Positions 5,085 through 64,000 of a stretch of 64,000 bases of DNA are shown piece by piece. The notes under the pieces were generated by a model. That model made no database searches. It was given only the letters and a program-made list of their open reading frames with translations, and was not told the DNA's origin. The stretch is from Mobula birostris (Eukaryota). The translations under genes were made by a program, and so were the position numbers. The first letter of the stretch is position 1, and the number at the start of each line of letters is the position of its first letter. Location: NCBI RefSeq assembly GCF_030028105.1, contig NC_092373.1, positions 174,445,556-174,509,555 on the forward strand, written 5' to 3'.

Positions 5085-5207
5085 CACAAGACACAGGAGC
5101 AGAATTAGGCCATATGGCCCATCAAGTCTGCTTCACTATTTGATCATGGCTGATTTATTTTCCCTCACAACTCTATTCTTCTGTATTCTCACCGTAATCT
5201 TTGACAC
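5085..5207 (-). mobile_element. CR1 3' end, left half; target of LTR element A (resumes at 12065)
   Basis: ggagcagaattaggccat...tttgacac joins seamlessly to cctgactaatcaagaacc at 12070. Compare the intact CR1 3' end at 49923-50070. Confidence 0.75.
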
Positions 5208-5323
5208 TGTAGTGATATCACGTGCAATGATGTGCCAGTACATGATTGAACAGAGCACTGAGCATGCACGGGATTGCCAGAATGTTCCAGCACGTGGCTG
5301 GGTTAAGGCGTGTTTGTTTATTA

Positions 5324-8300
5324 TGTAAGGGGGTTTCGTCTTTTACTGCGTAGGCTAATTAAAATGGCTTCTTTGTTATGTTATATTTGGGAATGCTTCT
5401 TTGTTATGTTAAATGCTGAGAAAGTCCTCCCGCTAGCAGTTTGTTGAATCGCGTTATCGATAAGATGTTATGAACCAACTGGGATAGTTGTTACGTTTTT
5501 GGTGTATCTGTAAGATTTGTATGCGTGGGGTTTTGGGGGGAGAAGGCGGGAGAGAGAGAGAGACAGAGGATGGACCAGGTGCTGTGATGTCCGCTAACAG
5601 GGTTGGACCCCAAGGAGAGTGTTCGGCAAGGAGACAGAGATGGACTCGTGTGGAGCGCCAGGTCAACCACCGTTGTTGGTCCTAGGCGGCCGGTCGAGGT
5701 GGTCTGAGGGGTCGCAGGGTGAAGAAGAGAGTCCTGAGCTCCAACTGTTTGTGCACGAAGAGATTGAACTTTGATAAGTGTGGCGCCTTTTATTTTCCTT
5801 TTATATTTTATTCTCTCTTAATTATATAGTTCCAGTCATATCTATAAACTGTATATCATTTAATCATATCTGGTGTACTGTCTGTTATTTGGGCAGGGTG
5901 GGGTACATCACACAGCATCCACACAAACTATTACCCAGTTTGGGGGGACCGAGGGCTGTTTCCCTAGACGACAGCGAGCCGAGCGACCCTGAGGGTGGCC
6001 GGGGGGCTACATTGTGGGGCCTTTCGTCCAGAATTGGATCTACTGGTACGCTGTGTGGTTGCCCTTTTTAAATCAGTAATGTGTGTCCCTGTGGGTTATT
6101 TGCTAGTTATTGCTGTATGCATGGTGGGTGAGGTCTTTGTTCGAGTTCAGACTAGCATTGACGAGCTGGAGGTGGAACTCGGCGCTGTCCATGCTGTTGG
6201 GAGAGAGAGGAAAGAGTGGTCTGATTCGGAGGTAGGGTCTGCGAATAAATGTTCTAGCTCTGGCAGGCTCCGCCTGGTACTTGGGATAGTGTCCACCCCA
6301 AGAGGGGCGGAGGCGTGCGAGACGAGGGCGGAGCGGATCTCTCAGTTGTTAGATGAGTGGCAGTGCTCGGTTGAGGGAGAGCGACAGGGATTGGTTGAAA
6401 GTTTAAGTAGGTGGGCTGGTGACGGTGTTAGAGCTGTCAGGTTCACTTACACCGTAGTGACAGCTGTCAGTTATTTGAACGAGGGGGGAAAGTTTTCAGT
6501 GTGTCTTCTCTGGCTAGGATGGAGGCTAAATTGCTTGCAGTGCCAGGGGGATCATTTCAGGGGATCAGCCCCTCCTTCAGTTGTTCAGCTGATCAGAGAG
6601 GTGTCAGGAAACTCAGTGGAGGCCCAGTGGGGGAACGGCTTGGGGTCTCTGGGGAAGCACGTTCCCAGCAATGTACCAATGAACTTCTGCAAGGAAAAGA
6701 CCCTATTCCTGAAGGCTTGGAGGGACCACGTCCCAGGGTGTCGTTATGGATTGAGGAAAGTGACGCTAAAGCCATCCTCGACCCCGGGGCGCAGGTCAAG
6801 TTGTTGTACAGTTCATTTTACAACCAGTATCCGAAGCATTAACCCTTGACAACCCCAAGGGCACCAGAGATTTTAGGTACCAGTGCCAGTAGTTATCCAG
6901 AAGACGATGATTGGTTAATGACCCTGGAGTTCATGGGGGCATTGTCTGGGCACCCAGCATGTCGAGTTGCTTCTGAGGACGTGTGTAGCAGCCTTGAGCC
7001 AGTACCGAATTTAAGCGAGACCCAGCAGTGGTACAGCCTGGGGAAAGTAGCTGAGGGTGAGACCCTCTTAGTAGATGCTCCGAACTACCACGAGGGAGGG
7101 GAGTTGACCGCTGAAGACACCTCAGTGAGAGAGAGGTCGCGGCAACTGGACCCTGGCGCCGTGGAAGATGTAGGCAGTGGGTGTGTGGATTATGCAACGT
7201 GGTTTAATGTGCTAGATCTGAGGGGTGGATGTTGCCAGATCCCGAGGAGTGCGGCTGTTGAGCCGAAGGCGGCCGTTATTAGTTCCCTAGGATTCTTCTG
7301 AGCCAAAAAGATGCCCAAGGGCATATCCGGAGCCCCTGCATCCTTCCCGCGGGGCATGAGGAAGACCATGGGGGAAGTGAAGGTGTGTGGAGTTTTGACG
7401 TATGTGGATGACCGCCTAGAGCTTGGATTCGCCTGGGGGGACTATGAAGCGAGGCGAGTGGCTGAGCCTGGGCGACAGAAGCGAAGTGTCAAATGTGGAG
7501 GAGTTTTTGGCCAGAGGAGTTTGGTGCAATGTGAGAAAATTGACCCGACATACCAGTTGAACTTCCTGGTGTTGGAACAGACAGTGGTGGACCTGGGGAT
7601 GGAAACCCAGGTCGTCAATCTGAATGAGACACAGGAGAGAGAGGGGATTTCCACCGTTGAACTGAGTGCTCAGAAATGCCGGCCAGAGACTGAGTGCTGC
7701 ACTTGTGGGACGACCATTGCAGACTTAGAATTCACGCTCGTCAACGTGGAGAAGGAGCAACGGAATTCCAAGCCAACACTGCGGTCATGTACTGATGAAT
7801 TAATCCAGCGAGAAGAAACAATGACCCACCTTCGAAGGGATCAGCAGAAACTCAAGACATCAATTCAGAAAAGATTGGAAGACTTACAAGTTGGAGAAGA
7901 TCAAGGAAGTGTTCTGACTAAGGCCAACCGAAAACCGAGAGCCCAGGGAGGGGAGTTTGACTACACTCCCGAGGAGGTGAAGAAATGGAGGACAGATCTC
8001 GGAAAAGGGAGGCGGACGCTTGAAAGGAACCTGAAGATGACCATCAAGAGTTTAAATGAAGGGGAAAATCTGAAAGTTGACCGGGAAGACATCATCAGGA
8101 AGTAAAAACTGGAGGCTGAACATCCTTTAACTGCTGCTTTTCAGGTCAGGATGGAAGAAGCTGGTGGGGTAGATGCGTCCCAGATTGAGATGGCCAAGAA
8201 CCCTGAGTCAGAACTGCTGAGGCTGTGGCGAGGGTTGAAGGAGTCCCCGAAGAAGCTGACGTCCCGACTGCAGGAGGCTGAAGGGATAGCCCCGGCTAAA

Positions 8301-9536
8301 TGTTTCAGTTTGGAGAAACTTAAACAGCAGCTACCGATCGAGGGAATGAGGAAGAATACGGATTCGAAGGATGGTGTGCTGCACATGCTGCCTATGTGGT
8401 ACATGCTGCCTTTCGCTAACTTCCCTGTGATTGAGGAAGAGACCTTTGGTCCTTCTCCCACTGAGTCAGGTGTAGTGGAGAGGGCTAGCTGTGGGCAGTC
8501 TGAGTTACGGCAGGATCAGGAAGGAAAAGAAGTGGGGCCCCGGTCACGGGACAGGGGGCTCTGAGCTGTAATGGTGGCCTGAGTGAGAGAGGAGTTGGCA
8601 AGCAGGCCTGAGGTATCCCTAGTAGTGTCAGAGCCTTTTGGGTTTAGGTGAGGGGGTACGGAGGTCTCGGAGGGTTAAGAAGCTCCCAGATAGGTTGGCC
8701 TATGTAGCGCCCGTGGGACAGGCGTAAGGTCCACTGTTTGGGGAGCACTGTCGCTGTGTGTATCTGTGTATGTGTGTGTTGTGTGTCTGCAGGACTGGCT
8801 GGCGAGTTATTTAGAAGTCATGAGGACATGACTTTATTTGGTGGGGGCAGAGTGTAAGGGGGTTTCGTCTTTTACTGTGTAGGCCAATTAAAATGGCTTC
8901 TTTGTTATGTTATACTTGGGAATGCTTCTATGTTATGTTAAATGCTGAGAAAGTCCTTCCGCTAGCAGTTTGCTGAATCAGGTTACTGATAAGAAGATGT
9001 TATGTATGAACCAACTGGGATAGTCGTTATGTTTTTGGTGTATCTGTAAGATTTGTATGCGCGGCATTTTGGGGAGAGAAGGTGGGAGAGAGAGACAGAG
9101 GATGGACCAGGTGCTGTGATGTCCACTAACGGGATCGGACCCCGAGGAGGGCGTTCGGCAAGGAGACAGAGACGGACTCATGTGGAGCGCCTGGTCGACC
9201 ACCGTTGTTGGTCCCAGGCGGCCGGTCGAGGTGGTCCGAGGGGTCGCAGGGTGAAGAAGAAGGGTCCTGAGCTCCAACTGTTTGTGCACGAAGAGATTGA
9301 ACTTTGAAAAGTGTGGCACCTTTTATTTTCCTTTTCTATTTTATTCTCTCTTAATTATATAGTTCCAGTAATATCTATAAACTGTAAATCATTTAATCGT
9401 ACTGTCTGTTATTTGGGCGGGGTGGAGTACATCACACAGCATCCACACAAACTAATTACCCACTTTGGCGGGGCCAAGGGCTGTTTCCGTAGACGACAGC
9501 AAGCTGAGCGACCCTGAGGTTAGCCGGGGGGCTACA
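5324..9536 (+). mobile_element. LTR element B: non-autonomous Gypsy with PNMA-like gag, inserted in the 5' LTR of element A
   Basis: LTRs 5324-6011 and 8853-9536 (TGTAAGGGGG...GGCTACA); TSD ATTA at 5320-5323 and 9537-9540. Degenerate tRNA-Pro-like PBS after 6011; purine tract before 8853. Gag QLLDEWQCS...LVESL, protease [11 protein letters not shown] remnants VLDLRGG / MPKGISGAPASF / YVDD. Confidence 0.92.
7521..8342 (+). pseudogene. Captured sarcomeric myosin heavy chain rod fragments (MYH16-like) inside element B
   Basis: [71 protein letters not shown] and [11 protein letters not shown]...[13 protein letters not shown] match recalled myosin II rod motifs (IDDLELTLAKVEKE, LDDLQAEEDKVNTLTK, RLEEAGGATSAQIEM, KKLAQRLQEAE...AKCASLEKTKQRL). 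Confidence 0.85.
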
Positions 9537-10245
9537 ATTACTGTAAATAAAAGTTCTCTAATTCTTTCAGAATATGATTCTTTACTGTTAACTCACGGTA
9601 TGTTTAAACAGAAGTAACATAACATGGTGTCAGAAAGCGTAGGAGAACATGCGAGTTTGGATTGCTCACAGACTCTCTCATTAAAGATAGATTTGTTTGT
9701 GGCATTCGAGATAATGCTTTGAGAGAAAGGCTGTTGAGAGAGCAAGATTTAAATTTTGAAAAAGCTCTGGCGCTTTGCAAAGTTTCTGAGACTGTGACGT
9801 TGCAGACTGAAGAGCTTTTTATCGAAAACTGCAATGTAAACGCTGTAAAAAAAGCGCAAATACATCAAAAAATATAATAATACGTTGACAAAGCCAACAG
9901 AGAACAAGATGGCATTGGAAAGAAAAAAGTCATGTGATCGCTGTGCGCGGGAACATCGTCCAAATCAGTGTCCCACATACAGCAAAATTTGCAATGGCTG
10001 CGTTAAGATTAATCATTTTTCACGCTGTTGTTAAAGTAGAAAGAAGGAAAATAAAATGAAACAAGTAAATACTATGCTTGAAGATGAACGTGAGGAATTT
10101 TACATAGATGTGCTTTATGAAAGTAAACAAAGTAAGAATGACTGGACTATTCCGTTGCAAGTGAATCAAAACAATATTCTGTTTAAATTTGATACTGGAG
10201 AGCAAGTAAATGTTCTTGCAGAATCTGAGTTTAATGCTTTAAAGC

Positions 10246-11078
10246 TGTGACAACAAACCAAGTTATCGGAAGATTGATGCTAATGAGAAAGAGATAAGGG
10301 AGACAATGGAGGAACGTTCAAAATGTTAATGAGAGAGAAGAGAGAGATAACGGAAAAGAAACACAGTTCAGAATATTGACAGACCGGTTGCTTTGAACCT
10401 GAACTGTTTGAAGTTTGATGGACAGGCGATACCCCGGCAGGGGGATAAAAAGAACAGGTTCGCTAAGGCACGACACACACCACGAGATCACGAGATAATG
10501 AGACCCTGGAAGAGCGGTGTGCCCCCACAAGTTGGTGGGAGCTTGGAGGTCTGATCGCGGGAACCGACCATAGACGCACAGGGTGAAAAAGGTACGATCG
10601 GTGGGAACCTGGTGTGTGTGTCCGGCCTTGCCTGGGTGCCGGGTTCACCGCGGAAGAATGGTTGTATCCGGAACGGAGGGGTCTCAGTCAGTGACCACAG
10701 AAGACATAAAAAAGGGTCCGCCCGAAAGCCAACTGTGAAGAACATCAAAGGTCTGTCTGAATCAAAATTTGCATTCTCTCTCTCTCCAACGGCACAACAG
10801 CGATTACTGCGAACTGTACTAAGCTGAACTGAACTCTGCGTCACTTAAGACTGATCATTTTACCCCTAGACTGCGATAGAGCTTGGTTGATTCCTGTTAC
10901 CCTAGTTCTGTGTACACGTGTGTATTATCATTGCTAACCTGCTGCATTTATATCCTTACGATTAGAGTACTGTGTTACTTACTTCTTTAATAAAACTTTA
11001 TTAGTTTCTGTTAAACCAGACTCCAACTAAGTGGTCCATTTCTGCTGGTTTGGCAACCCAGTTACGGGATACGTAACA
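10246..11078 (+). mobile_element. Solo LTR (element C, 833 bp) inserted in the protease region of element A
   Basis: TGTGAC...GTAACA termini; TSD AAGC at 10242-10245 and 11079-11082; AATAAA near 10989. Removing it restores EFNALKPRPKLHQT. Confidence 0.85.
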
Positions 11079-11276
11079 AAGCCAAGACCAAAGTTACATC
11101 AGACAAATATAAAAGGTATTCAGGTGCAGACATCGTGGCCAAGGTATCACACAAAAATATTGTGCATACGCTTTCATTTGTGGTCGTACCAAAAAAATGT
11201 ACAATCAATTCTGGGTTTATCTGCCTGTGAAAGTCTTAATTTGGCGAAAAGAATTTTTGTCTTGGATAGTGACACA

Positions 11277-11491
11277 GAGCTGAAGCGACAGAATGTTGCA
11301 CTACAGTCGGCAGAAGGTGATGTAACTCGACTGCAGGTCCAGCTCAAGGAGGCAATTATGATATGAAAAAGCAATGGCAGGAGGAGGTTGCTTCAATGCA
11401 AGCAATAATGAAAGAGACACTGAGAGAATACAAGATTCAGTTTCATCACTGTCTAGAGCAAGAACGCTCACAGTGGGCACAGTATAAGGAA
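11277..11491 (+). pseudogene. RABEP1: Captured Rabaptin-5 N-terminal coiled-coil fragment inside element A (resumes 11621-11665)
   Basis: ELKRQNVALQSAEGDVTRLQVQL..EAI..MKKQWQEEVASMQAIMKETLREYKIQFHHCLEQERSQWAQYKE versus recalled human DLKRQNAVLQAAQDDLGHLRTQL...EAIDEVKRQWREEVASLQAVMKETVRDYEHQFHLRLEQERTQWAQYRE. Confidence 0.9.
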
Positions 11492-11620
11492 GAAGTGAAA
11501 GCACGAGTGAAGGAATTGAGACATATTGAAATGAAGTCTCAGCATAAAAAAGAGATTACACAGTTAATGAATGAATTAGATGAAGAAAAGAAGATTTGTA
11601 TTTCATTACGCATGGAAGTG
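11489..11620 (+). pseudogene. SH3KBP1: Captured CIN85 C-terminal coiled coil inserted within the RABEP1 fragment
   Basis: [44 protein letters not shown] versus recalled human [46 protein letters not shown]. Confidence 0.85.
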
Positions 11621-11665
11621 CAATGTGAATCAACTGATCTAAGGAGACGTTTGTCTGAAGGACAA
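11621..11665 (+). pseudogene. RABEP1: Second RABEP1 fragment
   Basis: QCESTDLRRRLSEGQ versus recalled human EREIADLRRRLSEGQ; followed in frame by an integrase C-terminal-like tail GDKVRIQ...RSYMIQTEEGAVLRKNRK. Confidence 0.85.
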
Positions 11666-12064
11666 GGAGACAAAGTGAGGATACAAGATAAAAGGAACAC
11701 ATGGACACAGACCAGATCATACATGATCCAGACAGAGGAGGGAGCGGTGTTAAGAAAGAATCGCAAAGGCTTTAAGAAAGAGCCAACTTCAGAGTTTCAG
11801 TTATCTGATATAGATGAGTTTTGATTAACATTGTTAATTGTTTTTCTTTTTAAGGAAAGATAGATGTGGTGATATCACGTGCAATGATGTGCCAGTACAT
11901 GATTGGATAGAGCACTGAGCATACGCGGGATTGCCAGAATGTTCCAGCACGTGGCTGGGTTAAGACGTGTTTGTTTATTACCGTAAATAAAAGTTCTCTA
12001 ATTCTTCCAGAATATGATTCATTACTGTTAACTCAAGGTATGTTTAAACAGAAGTAACATAACA

Positions 12065-25650: not shown

Positions 25651-26329
25651 AAGCTGCTAGAGATACTCTTTGGATTGCGCAGCATCTGTGGCAAGAAAGG
25701 ATCAAAATCCTGCATCAGGATTGAGAGTGGAGAGGGAAGGTACGTAGCTGGTGTACAGATGAAAGAGGAGGAATTGAGACAAGGTTGATGGGCGATAGAT
25801 ATATGGACAAAGGTGGGATAAACAAAACCCTGTTGCTAGAAAGGATGAAGGTGGAGATAGAGGCTGGAGGAAGATGACTGGAAACACAAAGGGCAAGGAT
25901 CTGATATGGAAAATTATAATGGCCCTTCAAAACAGACAGCAGTGCTCAGCCCAGTGAGTTCCTTCGGCAGTTTGGTTTTTGCTCCAGTTTCCAGCATCTT
26001 CAATCTCTTGTATCCACTAAGTCTTCCCCCCCCACACACACACACTCAGATGTCTCTTACTCCCCATCTCTTCCTCGTCTTTACCTGCCCCGTAGCACTT
26101 CTCCCCCTCATACCTCACGTCTCACCCTCACCCTGCCTGCCCCCTCATCTGTCTCTCCTTCCCCTCACCTGTCATTCACTCACCGGTCTCCTCCTCACCT
26201 ATCTCTCTCATACCTTCACCTTTGTCCCCTCCCCCTCAACCACATCCCACCTGTCTCTCTCAACCCTCACTTCCCTCCTTGAGTGTCTCTCCAAACCCCT
26301 CACCTATATCTTCCACCCATTCACCCACC

Positions 26330-26886
26330 CCTCACCTGTCTCTCCCTTCCCTTCACTTGGTCCCTCTCACCTGTCTCTCCCTTCCCTTCGTCCCGCTCCC
26401 CTGTCTCTCCTTCCCTTTACTTGGTCCCGCTCACCTGTCTCTCCCTTCCCTTCACGTAGTCCCGCTCACCTGTCTCTTCCTTCCCTTCACTTGGTTCCCT
26501 CACCTGTCTCTCCCTTCCCTTCACTTGGTCCCACTCATCTGTCTCTCCCTTCCCTTCACTTGGTCCCGCTCACCTGTCTCTCCCTTCCCTTCACTTGGTC
26601 CCTCTCACCTGTCTCTCCCTTCCCTTCGTCCCACTCCCCTGTCTCTCCCTTCCCTTCACTTGGTCCCGCTCACCTGTCTCTCCCTTCTCTTCACCCGCCC
26701 CCTCACCTGTCTCTCCCTTCCCTTCACTTGGTCCCGCTCACCTGTCTCTCCCTTCTCTTCACCCGCCCCCTCACCTGTCTCTCCCTTCCCTTCACTTGGT
26801 CCCGCTCACCTGTCTCTCCCTTCTCTTCACCCGCCCCCTCACCTGTCTCTCCCTTCTCTTCACTTGGCCCCCTCACCTGTCTCTCG
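26330..26886. repeat. Polypyrimidine minisatellite, 33-35-bp units (ctcacctgtctctcccttcccttcacttggtcccg), about 16 copies
   Basis: Directly visible tandem units. Degenerate pyrimidine-rich precursors extend back to about 26050. Explains the long low-complexity ORFs. Confidence 0.95.
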
Positions 26887-35923: not shown

Positions 35924-38900
35924 TGTGGTGGCCTGCACACGCGGGACTCGAACCGGCATCGGGAGCCACGGGCAGACACGCGGTAGCGCGTTTGGAACTA
36001 CCCGCTCAGGGCGGACCTTCTGGGGACAGTCTGACATCATGTCCGACCATGTCCACCATCAATAATGGTGTTTCTATTACCAAAGATGGGGCTCAGGCAT
36101 GTGCCGCTGCCGCCCACCATGTGCTTTTCTGGGAAACGCTGGGGCCAGCCGTCGCTAATGGTTATGATGGCTGGCCACTGAGACAGCCTCCTGTACCTCT
36201 GGAACCGACACTCCAGGCAGTGCTTCCTGGTAGACACTGGGGCCGAAGTCAGCGTACTACCCCCCTCGAACATGGACACTCGTAATGCGGTTCCAGGCCC
36301 CGAACTCACCGCTGCAAATGGCACCAGTATTCAGACGTACGGCCCGTGAACTATCTCACTGCATTTCAGGTCCAGCCGTTTCACTTGGACTTTCCCGTTG
36401 GCAGTGGTGTCACAGCCACTACTAGGGGCAGATTTCCTACGAGCCAACTGCCTCCTGGTCGACCTAAAAAGCCGGCGTTTGGCCAACACTGAGATGTTCC
36501 AGACTTTACAGCTCAAGAAGCCAAGCTGCTGGCCCTCCACCTGGATTCCATGACCCCCTCAGGTAATGAATTCACCAGGGTGTTAGTGGAATTCCCCTCC
36601 ATAGTCACCCTGCAGTTCTCCATGGCCAACCCCAAGCACGGCGTGCAGCACCACATCCCCACGCAAGGACTGCTGCTACACGCCCGAGCTCACAGGCTCC
36701 CACCCGACAAGCTCCACCTCGCCAAGGAGGAGTTCCGTAAGATGGAAGAGATGGGAATCGTACGCCGCTCAGACAGCCCGTGGGTATCCCCGCTGCACAT
36801 GGTGCCCAAGTCCTCAGGAGGATGGAGGCCCTGCAGAGACAACAGAAGGCTCAATGATGCCACAACCGCCGACAGATTCCCGGTACCCCACATCCAGGAC
36901 TTCATGGCAAACCTGCATGGAGCGACCATCTTCTCGAAAATCGACCTTGTCAGGGGATACCATCAGATCCCAGTGCACCCCGACGACGTGCCCAAGACAG
37001 CCCTCATCACCCCGTTTGGTTTGTTCGAATTCCTGAGGATGCCTTTCGTTCTCAAGAATGCAGCCCAAACTTTCCAAAGGCTCATGGACTCGGTGGGACG
37101 CGGTTTGGATTTCGTTTTCATTTACTTGGACGATATCCTGGTGGCCAGCAGTTCGCACCAAGAGCACGTGGCACATTTGCGCCAGCTCTGCCAATGCCTG
37201 AGCGACCATGGACTGGCAATCAATCTGGCGAAGTGCCAGTTTGGGCTGACGGAGATCGACTCCTTGGGCCACAGAGTCAACCGACATGGCGCAGTTCCCC
37301 TACCGGACAAGGTCCAGGCCATCCGCCAGTTCCCCAAGCCCAGCACGGTCAAGGGCCTGCAGGAGTTCCTAGGGATGGTCAACTTTTATAATCGGTTCGT
37401 GCCTGTGGCGGCACGCATCATGAGACCCTTGTTCAGCCTGATGGCCGGCGAGGCCAAAGAAGTGGCATGGGGCGCAGAGTCCACGGAGGCGTTCGAGCAG
37501 GCCAAGGAGGCGCTGGCAAAGGCAGCCCTCCTAGTGGAGGGACACGGAGTCCACGGAGGCGTTCGAGCAGGCCAAGGAGGTGCTGACAAAGGCGCCCTCC
37601 TAGTGCACCTGAGAGTCGACGTATCCACGGCACTCACAGTCGACACTTCCGACACGGCAGACGGCGGAGTCCTGGAGCAGCTTGTCGAGGACCAGTGGCG
37701 ACCACTCGCTTTCTTCAGCCGGCACCTACGGCCACCGGAGGTGAAGTACAGTGCTTTTGACAGAGAGTTGCTAGCACTCTACCTGGCTGTCCGGCATTTC
37801 CGGTACTTCCTCAGGGGAAGGGAGTTCACCGTGTATACGGACCACAAGCCCCTCACCTTCGCACTGGCCAAGGTATCGGACCCATGGTCGGCTCGGCAGC
37901 AGAGGCACCTGTCCTTTATTTCAGAATTCACCACGGACGTCCGCCACATCGCAGGGAAGAACAACGTCGTCGCCGACACACTGTCTCGCCCCTGCCTCCA
38001 CTCAGTAGGCATATCGTCCTCAGGAATAGACTACGCAGCACTGGCGGAAGCACAACGGTCAGACACCGAGATCCCGGCTTACCGCACCACCGTTTTAGGG
38101 CTCCATTCGGAGGACGTCCATCAGCCTGACAGCGGATCGACTCCTGTGCGACGTGTCTACCAGCAAACCCCGACCCATGGTACCAGCAGCACGGAGGCGC
38201 CAGGTGTTCGACATGCTGCACGACCTGGCCCACCCGTCCATCCATCAACCTGGTAGCAGACAGATTCGTCCGGCACGGTTTGCAAAAACAGGTCGGACAC
38301 TGGGCCAGGACCTGCGTACACTGCCAGACCGCCAAAGTCAGCGGCACGTGAAGGCTCCCCTCCAGCAGTTCCAGCTGACGCACAGGAGGTTCCAACACAT
38401 CCACGTGGACATCGTCGGACCCCTGCCAGTCTCCTGGGGCGCCAGGTATACCTTTACCATTGTAGGCAGGTTCACCAGATGGCCGGAAGCCGTACTGCTC
38501 GCAGACATGTCCACTGAGTCCTGTGCCAGGATGCTCATTGCAAACTGGATCGCCAGGTTCGGCCTCCCAATGGACATCACCTACTACAGAGGGGTGCAGT
38601 TCATGTCGGGTTTGTGCACAGCACTGGCACAGCTCCTGGGCACCCAGCTGCATCACACCACAGCGTACCATCCCCAGTCCAACGGTTTGGTAGAGGGATT
38701 CCACCGGCATCTCAAGTCGGCCCTGATGGCACGTCTCAGGGGCCCCAACTGGGCAGATGAGCTTCCCTGGGTCCTACTGGGCATCCACACAGCCCCCAAG
38801 GAGGACCTGGACACCTCAGCAGAATTGGTCTACGGTGCCCCCCTGACGGTCCCAGGCGAGTTCGTACCAGAGGCCCGAGGTTCGGAAGAAACTCCAGCAG

Positions 38901-39507
38901 TGGTGCTAACGAGACTGCGGGACAAGGTAGGGACCCTGGCACCGGTCCCGACCTCCAGGCATGGTCCCACGCCATCCTTCACCCCTAAAGACCTCCCAGA
39001 CTGTGAGTATGTTTTCACTCGCAGGAGCATGCCCAGGTCACCTCTACAGCAGCCGTACGAGGGACCCTTCGAGGTGATCCGGTGTTGTGGAGGTGGGTGG
39101 CTGGGAAGAGACTTTTACAGTGGACCACCTCAAACTGGCGCACTGGGACACTGAGCAACCAGTGAGGGTACCCGCACCGCGCCGGCCAGGCCGGCCACCC
39201 AGGGAAGCCACACAGACTGGGGGCTCCACTTCCCCCATGGATGTTTCTTGGGGGGGGGTGTCGGCCCGCACACGCGGGACTGGAACCACCATCGGGAGCC
39301 ACAGGCAGACACGCGGTAGCACGTTTGGAACTGCCTGCTCAGGGCAGACCTTCCGGGGACAGTCTGACGTCACGTCCGCCCCGCGGATCGCAGGGGTCCG
39401 TGGGAGGGGAGATTTAAGCGCGCTATTTTGAATCAGTAAAGGCATTCTGAGTTCAGCTCTCTCTGTCTCCGTGTGTTTCTTTAGTAGTGCGTTTGCGCGT
39501 GACTACA
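35924..39507 (+). mobile_element. Gypsy LTR retrotransposon, CsRn1-like clade, internally deleted
   Basis: Partial 5' LTR 35924 to about 36040 matches the 3' LTR 39259-39507 (ends GACTACA). TSD GTAG at 35920-35923 and 39508-39511; G-run PPT. CHCC-like WCFYYQRWG..C.C.PPC, protease LVDTGAEVS, RT YLDD, RNase H, integrase HIHVDIVGPLP...HPQSNGLVE. Confidence 0.92.
36550..39154 (+). pseudogene. pol (RT-RNase H-integrase), frameshifted
   Basis: ORFs 36550-38256 and 38153-39154 carry FSKIDLVRGYHQIP, FIYLDDILVAS, YSAFDRELLA, YTDHKPL, FTRWPEA and PYEGPFEV. Confidence 0.9.
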
Positions 39508-60127: not shown

Positions 60128-60533
60128 TTTTTGGGTATTGATGACGGTCACCTACTATCTTTCAGCTTCGGTGTCACTTACAATGGAAATGTCAGGTCCT
60201 CTCCACCTTCTCCTGAACATCACCCCGCCCCACACACAAGCACGAGATGCTAGACATCCTCAGCCGGTGACCCAGCGGAGCTTCCAGAAGGTTCTGGATC
60301 ACACATCCGCAGTGTCTCGGGACTCCCGGAGCTGGTGCATTGGTTTATAACCTGGCTTATCACCGGACCCGGCTGCCGGCTTTACTTTCGTTTCAGTGGA
60401 AGTGAAAGCTTTGGTGTGGGTGTGTCGGATCTGATCAGCCCCGCCCGCCCGGAGGCGGTGCTCCGTCGTTGGGGGGAGTCGGTCAGCGGCGGGAGGGACA
60501 GAGACAGTGAGAGCCGAAGCGGCACGGTCATCC

Positions 60534-60900
60534 CTCCTGATCCCGCACAGGGCAGTGTCCCCGCCTGATCCGCAGACGGCACGATCATCCCTCCTGATCC
60601 CGCACAGGGTACAGTCCCCCTCCTGATCCCGCACAGGGTACAGTCCCCCGCCTGATCCCGCACAGGGTACAGTCCCCCGCCTGATCCCGCACAGGGCAGT
60701 GTCCCCCGCCTGATCCCGCACAGGGTACTGTCCTCCTCCTGATCCCGCACAGGGTACAGTCCCCCGCCTGATCCCGCACAGGGTACAGTCCCCCTCCTGA
60801 TCCCGCACAGGGTACAGTCCCCCTCCTGATCCCGCACAGGGTACAGTCCCCCGCCTGATCCCGCACAGGGCAGTGTCCCCCGCCTGATCCCGCAGACGGC
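60534..60900. repeat. 29-bp minisatellite (cctgatcccgcacagggtacagtcccccg), about 13 copies
   Basis: Directly visible; gives the 29-aa periodicity of the minus-strand ORFs. Confidence 0.95.
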
Positions 60901-61021
60901 ACGGTCCATCGCTGGATCCCACAGACGGTGGCCCGGTTCCCCTGACCCGAACAAGTTGGTTCCGACTGAGTGACAGGAATCGATCCCGGGTTCCGAGGCC
61001 AAATCTACACCAACCGCCGCA

Positions 61022-61334: not shown

Positions 61335-62058
61335 GGCTGAGTGTGTTTTGGTTAGTTGGCATGGGTGAATGAGTGTGAATGTGTTTTGGCAGTGAAGGCA
61401 TGTGTGCAGTGTGGTAAGTGATTGTGAGTGTGAGGGTGTAGACAGTTACCGGGTGTGCGTCAATGTGTGGTGAGGATGTGGTGTACGTACATGTGTGCAG
61501 CCTAAGCACATATCACTGAGTGTGTGGGCACATGTGCACTGAGGGTGGGGCAGAAACGAAGACTTGAATTTCCCTTCACTATAGCAATTGCAATGACAGT
61601 GAGGGTTAAATTGAGGGATTGCCAAAGGTCACATCGAACAAAGGTGGGTGGGGAATTATGTGATCTGCCTAAACAAGGAAGATGAACTGGATCATGAAAC
61701 AGCTGAGAGGGGAAGAGTGAGATTTAGGTAATACTTATGTAGATATGTGATACATACATCCACAGATGTGTAGGGATGTTATCAACAGACAAGAGGGTAA
61801 ATATTGACCATCTGTTTCTCAAGACAACCATTAAAGAAAAAAACACCACTGATCTACCTACCTACATGGTCACATATTCCTCGACCCCTCTAATTGCCAG
61901 AAATTTATGGCTGAAACTTAAAACAGTGTTGAATAGGTTCTTGATGGTAAGGGTCTCAATGGTTATGGGGAGAAGGCAAGAGAATGGGGTTAAGAGGGAA
62001 AATAAATCAGCATGGCAGAGCAGACTCATTGAGCAGAATGGCCTAGTACTGTTCCTAT

Positions 62059-62972
62059 GGACTGAGTCACCCCAGTCTGCCAGGGTATAGCATGCCAAAG
62101 GTTCACCATTATGGATGGAGTCACCCCAGTCCCCCAGGGTAGAAGATTCCAAAGGTTCACCATTATGGACTGGGTCACCGCAGTCCACCAGGGTAGAGGA
62201 TTCTAGAGGTTCACCATTATGGACTGAGTCACCCCAGTCCGCCAGGGTATAGCATGCCAAAGGTTCACCATTATGGACTGAGTCACCCCAGTCCGCCAGG
62301 GTATAGCATGCCAAAGGTTCACCATTATGGACTGGGTCACCGCAGACCGCCAGGGTAGAGGATTCCAAAGGTTCACCATTATGGACTGAATCACCCCAGT
62401 CTGCCAGGGAAGAGGATTCCAAAGCTTCACCATTATGGACTGGGTCACCCCAGTCCGCCAGGGAAGAGGATTCCAAAGGTTCACCATTATGGACTGAATC
62501 ACCCCAGTCTGCCAGGGAAGAGGATTCCAAAGCTTCACCATTATGGACTGGGTCACCCCAGTCCGCCAGGATAGAGGATTCCAAAGGTTCACCATTATGG
62601 ACTGAATCACCCCAGTCCGCCAGGGTAGAGAATGCCAAAGCTTCACCATTATGGACTGAATCACCCCAGTCTGCCAGGGAAGAGGATTCCAAAGCTTCAC
62701 CATTATGGACTGGGTCACCCCAGTCCGCCAGGATAGAGGATTCGAAAGGTTCACCATTATGGACTGAATCACCCCAGTCTGCCAGGGTAGAGAATGCCAA
62801 AGCTTCACCATTATGGACTGAGTCACCCCAGTCTGCCAGGGTAGAGACTTCCGAAGGTTCACCATTATAGACTGAGTCACCCCAGTCCACCAGGGTGGAG
62901 GATTCCAAACGTTCACCATTATGGACTGAGTCACCGCAGTCCCCCAGGGTAGAGAATGCTAAATGTTCACCA
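62059..62972. repeat. 54-bp minisatellite, 17 copies
   Basis: Unit ggactgagtcaccccagtccgccagggtagaggattccaaaggttcaccattat with exact 54-bp period (for example, starts at 62221 and 62761). Confidence 0.97.
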
Positions 62973-64000
62973 CCCTCTTGAGATAAGGACGAGTTTCTTC
63001 ACTCAGTGGTAAACACCCACCCTGTTCTGTAAGAGTTTTGTGAATTTCCATTTGACCTCCGTTCATTCCTTCAGCCTCTCGAGATTAGAGGCCCTCTTCA
63101 TTCTACAAGCCCACCAGCCCCTCTGTGCTGCCTGTATGGCAAGATCATCCTTGTTTGGGTGAGGGTAGCAGAATTGTTTATGGTTCTTCATGAAATTATC
63201 TACATGTCAATGTCAAGCACAAGTGCTCTGTATGCACAGGTGCTCTGAAAATCTTGTTCACAGTAGCATCACATGCACATGGGATCAGGTAAGTATAATT
63301 CAAATGAAAAACAGGTTATACATTTTTACAAGAGGAAAACACAAATAGAACAAAGACAAACTCACACTTTGCAGTGCAAAGTGGTCATAGTGCTGCTAAA
63401 CTGCGGTGCGCCAGTTGGTTTTACAATCAAATGGTTGGAAGGAAGTAGTCATTCTTGATCCTAGTGGTGTGGCCCGTCAGGCTTCATTACTTCCTGCTGG
63501 ATGATAGCCGCATAACGATGGCATAGCTGGGATACTGCGAATCTTTGTTAGTTTGGAATTGGCTTATTAATTTTGTCTTGCACTGCTTTTCAAACAGATC
63601 AAATTACACAGTGCATTGAAATAGAACAAGGTAAAACAATAACAGAGCACAAAATAAAACTAACAGCTACAGAGAAAGTGCAGTGCAGATTGTGTGGTCA
63701 AGAGTCCATCTTATCATCAGTCCTTGGGGGAGGACAACAAAACTGTATATGATTCTCCATGGAAAGTCTACAACCACAGAAGTTCCTGCAGGATTGGAGG
63801 TGTGTCCTCCAGTCCTGCAAGTATCAAAACATTTGCATTCCACCAAGTCCTCGGTTTTCCTTCACTTTCTACATTAGGGACTATTCTCTCAGCCGCCAAG
63901 ATCCCAAATTCAGCATTCCTTGCCAAAACCTTTACAAATCTTTTAAGTTATTCCTTAAAATCCATCCTTCTGTTTTAGCCTTCAGTCTCTTGTCCTGTTG

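Follow-up and report, generated by a model that had tools for sequence, protein, structure and literature searches.

A non-autonomous Ty3/Gypsy retrotransposon of rays carries an MYH16-class myosin rod in frame within a decayed Pol

A stretch of 64,000 nucleotides of the Mobula birostris genome (NCBI RefSeq assembly GCF_030028105.1, contig NC_092373.1, positions 174,445,556 to 174,509,555; hereafter the window) contains a long terminal repeat (LTR) retrotransposon, element B, whose Pol reading frame runs without a shift into sequence of muscle-myosin type. The locus raises the question of how a host coding sequence came to lie in a mobile element, and why the frame across it stayed open. Element B proved to be one dead copy of a highly abundant, non-autonomous family of myliobatiform rays. 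We give a probability of about 0.95 to this identity and to the capture and amplification of a myosin mRNA, and about 0.55 to the proposal that the open frame has been kept by selection on the frame only, for a translatable RNA that escapes nonsense-mediated decay (NMD), and not for a fusion protein.

Composition of the Pol reading frame

The frame 6501-8564 is interrupted by stops only at 6840-6842, 7299-7301, 8103-8105 and 8562-8564, versus 46 and 57 stops in the other two frames (6021-8850). The initial annotation had described a single frame with three point stops; the shared frame stands, and the stop at 8562-8564 has to be counted as a fourth one of this copy, since two family proteins (P0001 and P0009) extend six residues beyond 8564 and end at the next stop of the window, 8580-8582. 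Mapping was carried out against P0164 (ENA, 1522 aa; RT-RH-IN, that is, reverse transcriptase (RT), RNase H (RH) and integrase (IN), by Pfam), the closest intact Pol found. The long frame is collinear with it, through protease, linker remnants, RT, RNase H remnant, myosin and Pol tail:

6633-6941, plus strand: pre-protease and protease region of Pol, 50% identical over 103 aa to P0164 3-105; contains stop 6840-6842
6942-7181, plus strand: linker remnants with several in-frame deletions, matching P0164 156-191, 216-230 and 353-375, and Hypanus P0016
7182-7496, plus strand: RT remnant with YVDD, matching P0164 409-414, 441-525 and 532-545; contains stop 7299-7301
7506-7592, plus strand: RNase H remnant of 29 aa, 15/29 identical to P0164 702-730, inside PF17917 (669-773)
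7593-8114, plus strand: myosin rod block 1, matching MYH16 P0048 908-1081 and MYH7 from 913; 174 gap-free codons; contains stop 8103-8105
8115-8147, plus strand: myosin rod block 2, preceded by a loss of 9 aa that shows as a gap against the less deleted P0010, P0015 and P0021; matches P0173 201-221
8148-8246, plus strand: myosin rod block 3, matching P0048 1144-1176; 17/33 identical to P0048 and 19/33 to P0013
8232-8342, plus strand: myosin rod blocks 4 and 5, matching P0048 1380-1398 and 1402-1416, with a deletion of ~205 aa before them and one of 3 aa between them
8343-8582, plus strand: C-terminal tail of Pol, still in this frame, 39% identical to P0164 1341-1399 (8397-8555); family stop 8580-8582, own stop 8562-8564
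8583-8852, plus strand: rest of the ancestral Pol tail, broken over three frames, with P0164 1450-1474 and 1484-1521 matched in the other two frames; ends in the polypurine tract, a purine run before 8853

The enzymatic parts of this frame are eroded. The protease triad reads DPG in this copy and DTG in P0164. An RT with YVDD is present, as had been claimed, and its match is weak (RVT_1, 19.5 bits, E 9e-4, below the cut-off of 29.6); it has lost two internal stretches of 33 and 26 aa as well as the thumb and connection, and the first RT aspartate is altered in all three M. birostris models that cover that site. Myosin stands in for P0164 731 to ~1330 (~600 residues), which comprises the remaining RNase H and the whole integrase. 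The second, third and fourth stops are open in some other copies, as far as RefSeq gene models, open by construction, can be read in this way; the first stop lies outside every family protein found.

The myosin match is significant: the Pol frame, with X at the stops, aligned to human MYH7 913-1087 without a gap (E 2.2e-16), and weaker MYH7 matches near 1155-1182 and 1388-1422 follow in native order. Three myosin segments from 7521 had been proposed. Their native order and common frame were confirmed; five blocks were resolved in their place, spanning 7593-8342, and 7506-7592 was ruled out as myosin by its assignment to RNase H. The end of block 3 overlaps block 4 at a repeated motif. Block 1 is identical to P0048 at 63/174 positions and to a short Narcine bancroftii protein (P0173) at 59/123, and identity of the cargo to MYH16 is 36-41%. 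Pfam returned no family in 7302-8102, in 8106-8561 or in the family protein P0005, whereas PDB and HMMER searches do find the cargo. The 5' capture junction has been secondarily deleted, P0008, P0011 and P0035 retaining more RNase H.

Exon boundaries of MYH7 presumably lie at codons 1033 and 1082. Block 1 is gap-free over the MYH7 974/975 intron position (7778/7779 of the window) and also over the point at which two isoforms of the Narcine gene differ, which supports an mRNA as the source of the cargo; the cited MYH7 data place intron 23 after codon 974 (c.2923-18) and another intron at 1112/1113 (c.3337-3) (PMC3546296). Several Mobula copies share a 120-nt in-frame deletion at 7656-7776, whose end lies at most 3 nt from the intron-23 position; this may be either a coincidence or a trace of splicing.

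Boundaries, insertion site and class of element B

Element B spans 5324-9536 and belongs to the non-autonomous LTR retrotransposons of the Ty3/Gypsy class; its gag is of PNMA type. It is present as a single copy within the window and is inserted in the 5' LTR of another LTR element, element A. Its terminal features are:

5320-5323, plus strand: 5' target-site duplication ATTA, identical to the 4 bases at 9537-9540
5324-6011, plus strand: 5' LTR, TG...CA, aligned to 8853-9536
6013-6033, plus strand: degenerate primer-binding site adjoining the 5' LTR
8853-9536, plus strand: 3' LTR, TG...CA, aligned to the 5' LTR
9537-9540, plus strand: 3' target-site duplication ATTA, pairing with 5320-5323

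The 4-bp duplication was confirmed by an empty-site control, as the intact 3' LTR of element A carries a single ATTA at the matching place. Alignment of the two LTRs of B gave 628 matches, 47 mismatches and 6 gaps (Kimura two-parameter distance, K2P, 0.074), with 21/35 transitions in CpG context. Ages read from these LTRs have to be taken with caution, CpG decay being heavy and the LTRs of element A being no more diverged than those of B although A must be older. By analogy with the murine leukaemia virus site, the primer-binding site may be tRNA-Pro-like; the window contains no tRNA gene. The domain order is that of Gypsy elements (gag, then PR-RT-RH-IN, PR being protease): B is collinear with P0164 and with the medaka Gypsy protein P0043 (Pfam order RT, RH, IN), its integrase being replaced. 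With a deleted RT under the cut-off, 29 aa of RNase H and no integrase, B is not an autonomous Gypsy element.

A family shared by dasyatid and mobulid rays

Cargo-bearing RefSeq models were found in Mobula birostris (P0001, P0002, P0004, P0005 and P0006), M. hypostoma (P0007, P0008, P0009, P0011, P0021, P0035 and P0042), Hypanus sabinus (P0010, P0015 and P0016) and Hemitrygon akajei (P0014); P0003, an unrelated member of the cluster, was dropped. P0005 is open for 450 residues, from the linker and RT through the end of the myosin. The join of RT and RNase H to myosin is common to P0002, P0004 and P0005, and the join of myosin to the Pol tail to P0001, P0009 and P0035. All eight cargo rows tested formed one clade (support 100/97) of subfamilies that are 52-59% identical and have internal myosin deletions and the myosin-to-tail join in common, other deletions differing between them. 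A search with 5200-8852 matched 15,770 contigs in run X1 and 16,959 in run X2; all 30 bins of this interval were covered in four runs from three organisms, and ~100 records per run pass from LTR ends into unrelated flanks. Summed over single contig depth was 735-2430 (X1) and 830-2230 (X2), which is a sign of abundance and not a copy number. A one-off processed myosin pseudogene in a dead copy, or an assembly chimera, for which the single B copy of the window could speak, is extremely improbable: the cargo replaces Pol sequence and does not interrupt it, all bins were recovered in three organisms, and the junctions are shared with other genomes.

Since the family is present in dasyatids and in mobulids, capture would predate their split, unless the element moved sideways. 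Further rounds of retroposition followed the capture. Long mobility after capture, which had been proposed from the window, is borne out by cargo models in four myliobatiform species, deep subfamilies and very many copies. The comparison on which that proposal rested, cargo divergence from myosin far above LTR divergence, agrees with long movement and overstates the time since capture: part of the cargo divergence would predate the capture, since its sister gene in Narcine is itself only 52-53% identical to MYH16. The copies are misnamed in RefSeq, as 'myosin-16-like', 'putative uncharacterized protein MYH16' and cardiac or skeletal 'myosin heavy chain-like', and P0005 (XP_072103657), wholly element frame, is labelled 'glutathione S-transferase theta-2 isoform X1' (GSTT2). 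Element copies thus contaminate the annotation and would inflate counts of the ray myosin family. The family is also an old and abundant vertebrate case of LTR-mediated gene capture, published animal cases being young and few, and its many copies and subfamilies allow a direct count of selection for translatable RNA versus protein.

The donor is MYH16-class

MYH16 proteins scored top against the cargo among full-length myosins, and its closest relative was the short Narcine bancroftii gene (P0019 and P0173), recovered as its sister at 100/98 and 48-62% identical to the three copies scored. Since the Narcine isoforms, which differ by a 29-residue skip, diverge at the equivalent of MYH7 codon 1112/1113, an intron position in MYH7, this looks like an intron-bearing host gene; it is possibly degenerate and possibly an undescribed MYH16-class paralog. 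In a tree of 19 rows, cargo and Narcine fell on the MYH16 side (100/99) and outside jawed-vertebrate MYH16 (95/95). These 19 rows were taken from a larger tree of 37; those omitted were four cargo rows that are short, teleost and invertebrate rows that are redundant, and P0018, P0025 and P0022, which are long branches. Approximately unbiased (AU) tests rejected a grouping of cargo with skate MYH16 without Narcine (p 1.6e-9) and one of cargo and Narcine with MYH6/7/7B/fast myosins (p 0.01), and did not reject cargo, Narcine and skate MYH16 together (p-AU 0.084). MYH16 had been suggested as the donor; the class holds and canonical MYH16 is doubtful, the cargo being sister to the divergent Narcine gene and not to skate MYH16. 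From these comparisons a separate MYH16-class paralog appears likelier as donor than a fast-evolving MYH16. The family thereby suggests that batoids have a divergent gene of the MYH16 class; the cargo would then preserve the rod of an undescribed paralog, itself perhaps decaying.

Searches of proteins of 395-2000 aa, where MYH16s ~50% identical were the best hits, and of 123-394 aa yielded no full-length batoid donor; they were word-limited, which makes this a weak negative. The capture of a muscle mRNA in a heritable lineage had been called unexpected. This rests on the mammalian expression of MYH16, described in jaw muscle (PMC6402096), a pattern that may be inapplicable to the ray donor. 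P0018 and P0025 are very divergent MYH16-like rod pieces that grouped with cargo and Narcine at 96/80; we distrust this grouping, the branches being long and long-branch attraction possible. P0025 probably starts with dematin sequence.

The frame is kept while the residues erode

This copy contains 12 junctions between non-adjacent blocks: six in Pol, one into myosin, four in myosin and one back to Pol. All 12 are in frame, with a chance probability of 2e-6 at an in-frame share of one third; at 0.45, the largest share measured for short repeats, it is 7e-5. Three deletion joints found in more than one run (78, 120 and 60 nt) were likewise all in frame. Among ten small indels listed in other copies, six fall in the LTR, four in gag and none in 6633-8582, and frame changes relative to P0164 are confined to the last 270 nt (P 0.015 for two).

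The residues behave differently from the frame. Between cargo and Narcine, myosin-constrained columns were no better conserved than the others (29/61 vs 39/82, p 0.57), and the same test was null in all ten other pairs involving cargo (p 0.18-0.94); the control pair, Narcine vs skate MYH16, showed the constraint (46/62 vs 33/86, p 1e-5). Prolines number 8 in the 247 aa of cargo and 6-7 in four Mobula copies, versus none in four true rods. Three stops after insertion were seen where neutral decay predicts 1.5-2.8. The protease-RT-myosin fusion first described is truly in frame; that it would make a meaningful protein is doubtful, with RT blocks and thumb gone, the triad altered and the rod lacking myosin-like constraint.

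Gag and a candidate frameshift signal

Upstream of the Pol frame, in a different register, lie three features:

5968-6849, plus strand: gag frame with a PNMA-type capsid remnant and internal deletions, open from stop to stop; ATG at 6079 and 6121
6606-6612, plus strand: heptamer in the gag register, one mismatch from the slippery pattern X_XXY_YYZ
6620-6666, plus strand: candidate H-type pseudoknot, 7 nt 3' of the heptamer, from a pattern search on sequence only

The gag open reading frame (ORF) matched PF14893 at E 0.004-0.007, under the cut-off, and its blocks match residues 164-222 and 316-331 of the medaka gag P0043. Gag homology at 6265-6441 and 6559-6603 is in the frame of ORF 5968-6849, different from that of Pol. 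Coding had been assigned from 6501 in a single Pol frame; the single frame is correct, and its first ~40 codons, from 6501 to ~6612, are noncoding, Pol homology beginning at 6633.

The heptamer is the sole such site in the gag register within 6540-6680, against a background of 38 in 2834 nt in any register. Stem 1 of the putative pseudoknot would pair ~6620-6624 with 6637-6641 and stem 2 ~6631-6636 with 6661-6666; its score was equalled at 41 of 2679 other internal start points, and the 7-nt spacer lies inside the 5-9 nt expected for a -1 frameshift signal of the Ma3/PEG10 type. The sequence is thus compatible with a programmed -1 frameshift that would carry ribosomes from the gag to the Pol frame of B; in PNMA3, a heptamer and an H-type pseudoknot are reported to give ~20% -1 frameshifting (PMC5009743). 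Since contig 28 of run X2 crosses 6488-6662 without a gap, the relation of the two frames is found in at least one further copy. From the gag stop to the 3' LTR there are 2004 nt, and from the Pol-frame stop 271 nt.

Selection on the frame and the alternatives

The ancestor of the family captured, in sense direction, a spliced mRNA of an MYH16-class gene, which replaced the greater part of RNase H and the entire integrase; template switching is the probable route, and mobilisation would depend on the proteins of a helper element. Descendants were shortened by successive deletions while amplifying. We propose that the copies which spread were those whose RNA could be translated from gag, via a -1 frameshift, to a stop close to the 3' LTR. 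Ribosomes that now and then travel along the Pol frame would protect the RNA against NMD, leaving more RNA for packaging. The myosin piece would serve as stop-free filler, selection keeping its frame and not its residues, and the stops of this copy would reflect neutral decay after insertion. Selection of this kind predicts the pattern observed: junctions that keep the frame, residues free to change, breakage tolerated close to the end, and retention of a frameshift signal. In published work, NMD can be inhibited by frameshifting or readthrough of low efficiency (PMC7566565).

Several points weigh against this proposal. Its NMD step is hypothetical, and the slippery site is imperfect in this copy, the heptamer deviating at one position. 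Twelve of 24 listed differences in the frame between this copy and others are synonymous vs 7.3 expected (P 0.03, in the best-supported 40 of 404 rows), a hint at some residue-level constraint. Of the deletion joints listed within the frame in other copies, counted from 15 of 76, 8/11 preserve it (P 0.009 at one third and 0.06 at 0.45), or 8/13 with those of table 5c (P 0.035 and 0.18). Ascertainment also enters, as the window was flagged for its open frame and RefSeq models are open by construction. Finally, frameshifting indels are absent from 1.93 kb of this copy, where 8.4 would be expected from six LTR indels; neutral decay alone fails to explain this indel-free frame, and simple repeats in the LTR may inflate the rate.

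The open frame could instead be a by-product, with template switching at short repeats favouring in-frame deletions, ascertainment adding to the effect and no selection on translation. Several junctions do lie at repeated motifs, and 3-8 letters are shared at four of the eight in-frame joints of this copy; the other four share none. The in-frame share of short repeats is 0.39-0.45 both in the cargo and in intact pol, a range at whose upper end the joints counted at read level lose significance (P 0.06-0.18) and the 12 junctions of this copy do not. Some copies have out-of-frame joints and gag frameshifts, whereas in the Pol frame no small indel was listed and the frame changes are clustered in the final 270 nt. 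Deeply split subfamilies, moreover, have different in-frame deletion sets. On this balance we regard a pure by-product as unlikely.

We think it improbable that the Gag-Pol-myosin product is functional, either as a coiled-coil tether that would bring RNA or Gag of the element to helper particles or in host use as proposed for maize Bs1. The synonymous excess would fit such a product, as would 28/36 core columns that are still hydrophobic, the coiled-coil cargo of Rabaptin and CIN85 type in the neighbouring element A, and a single-sequence model that predicts two confident helices (residues 63-104 and 126-158) in a fold of low confidence overall (mean predicted local distance difference test, pLDDT, 60.7). 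In 11 pairs involving cargo, however, neither myosin-constrained nor hydrophobic core columns were preferred; prolines are common across Mobula copies, the enzyme motifs are altered, and subfamilies retain different, partly non-overlapping rod pieces.

Frame-only selection might extend to non-autonomous LTR elements of rays in general, with a frameshift signal and a junk frame of ~650 codons acting as an NMD shield, so that only in-frame captures amplify. We put this forward tentatively. If true, it would explain the in-frame host pieces in unrelated ray families, an MYH16-class rod in B and Rabaptin plus CIN85 in A. In a bolder form of the idea, coiled coils would have been favoured as a tether of the product to helper particles.

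Relation to known systems

Acutely transforming retroviruses carry gag-onc fusions in helper-dependent genomes. They resemble B in helper dependence, in-frame fusion to a host mRNA and progressive deletion; they differ in that their cargo protein is the selected trait, whereas the cargo of B decays in a germline retrotransposon without env. PNMA-type Gypsy elements (P0043 of medaka, and P0164) share with B a PNMA-like gag and the order PR-RT-RH-IN. In P0043 of medaka a single frame holds both gag and pol, whereas B has them in separate frames and lacks integrase and most of RNase H. The candidate signal of B, a heptamer with one mismatch in this copy and a putative H-type pseudoknot between gag and the next frame, resembles the -1 frameshift signals of PNMA3/Ma3 and PEG10 as described in the sources cited (PMC5009743, PMC11011659).

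Chimeras made by LTR-mediated retroposition in animals are attributed to template switching (Tan et al. 2016, PMC5131818; review PMC5470649). Those described there and B have in common a partial host mRNA in sense direction, discontinuous flanks of LTR element sequence, replacement of part of an internal ORF and non-autonomous remobilisation. In B, part of the ORF is replaced between both LTRs, and donor introns are absent as judged from the MYH7 and Narcine positions. The chimeras of that account are young and few per genome, whereas that of B occurs in two ray families, in deep subfamilies and at high abundance, and, unlike them, keeps to its Pol frame across 12 junctions while its residues are under no such constraint. 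Maize Bs1, as presented in the same source, is also an LTR element with host gene pieces, partly in frame, and with switch points common to all copies (PMC5131818). Bs1 has 1-5 copies and is cited there as a likely functional gene, whereas B is far more abundant and its cargo gave no sign of purifying selection on the residues, either in the constraint test (p 0.57) or in the proline counts, the synonymous excess being a weak contrary hint. In the features compared, element B behaves as an LTR-mediated retrocopy chimera; its new aspects are its age, its abundance and the frame-only pattern. No paper on the family was found in the literature searched, which did not take in Repbase, Dfam or closed supplements; the main text of a 2026 mobulid genome preprint contains neither 'myosin' nor 'MYH', and its supplements could hold a repeat library with the B family.

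Other features of the window

The host of B is listed here with its extent:

5208-12064: element A, a second non-autonomous LTR element, LTRs alike at 190/200 positions

Its cargo (~11262-11670) follows a protease remnant and consists of a Rabaptin-type piece (PF03528, E 8e-23) joined to a coiled coil of CIN85/SH3KBP1 type (PDB 2n64, E 4e-8); the frame of this cargo stops 41 nt short of the 3' LTR. For element A, the leads returned by ESM Atlas were all generic coiled coils. Coiled coils of host origin are thus present in B and in the element around it. An LTR-like piece (~10280-11075) interrupts the protease region of A.

A different Gypsy element occupies 35925-39381, with long pol frames at 36493-38256 and 38099-39154 and terminal repeats 88% alike; it has no close relation to B at the DNA level. 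Tandem arrays at 60502-60987, 61948-63057 and 26327-26871 have periods of 29, 54 and 33-35 nt, respectively, and on its minus strand the 54-nt array stays open over 378 codons.

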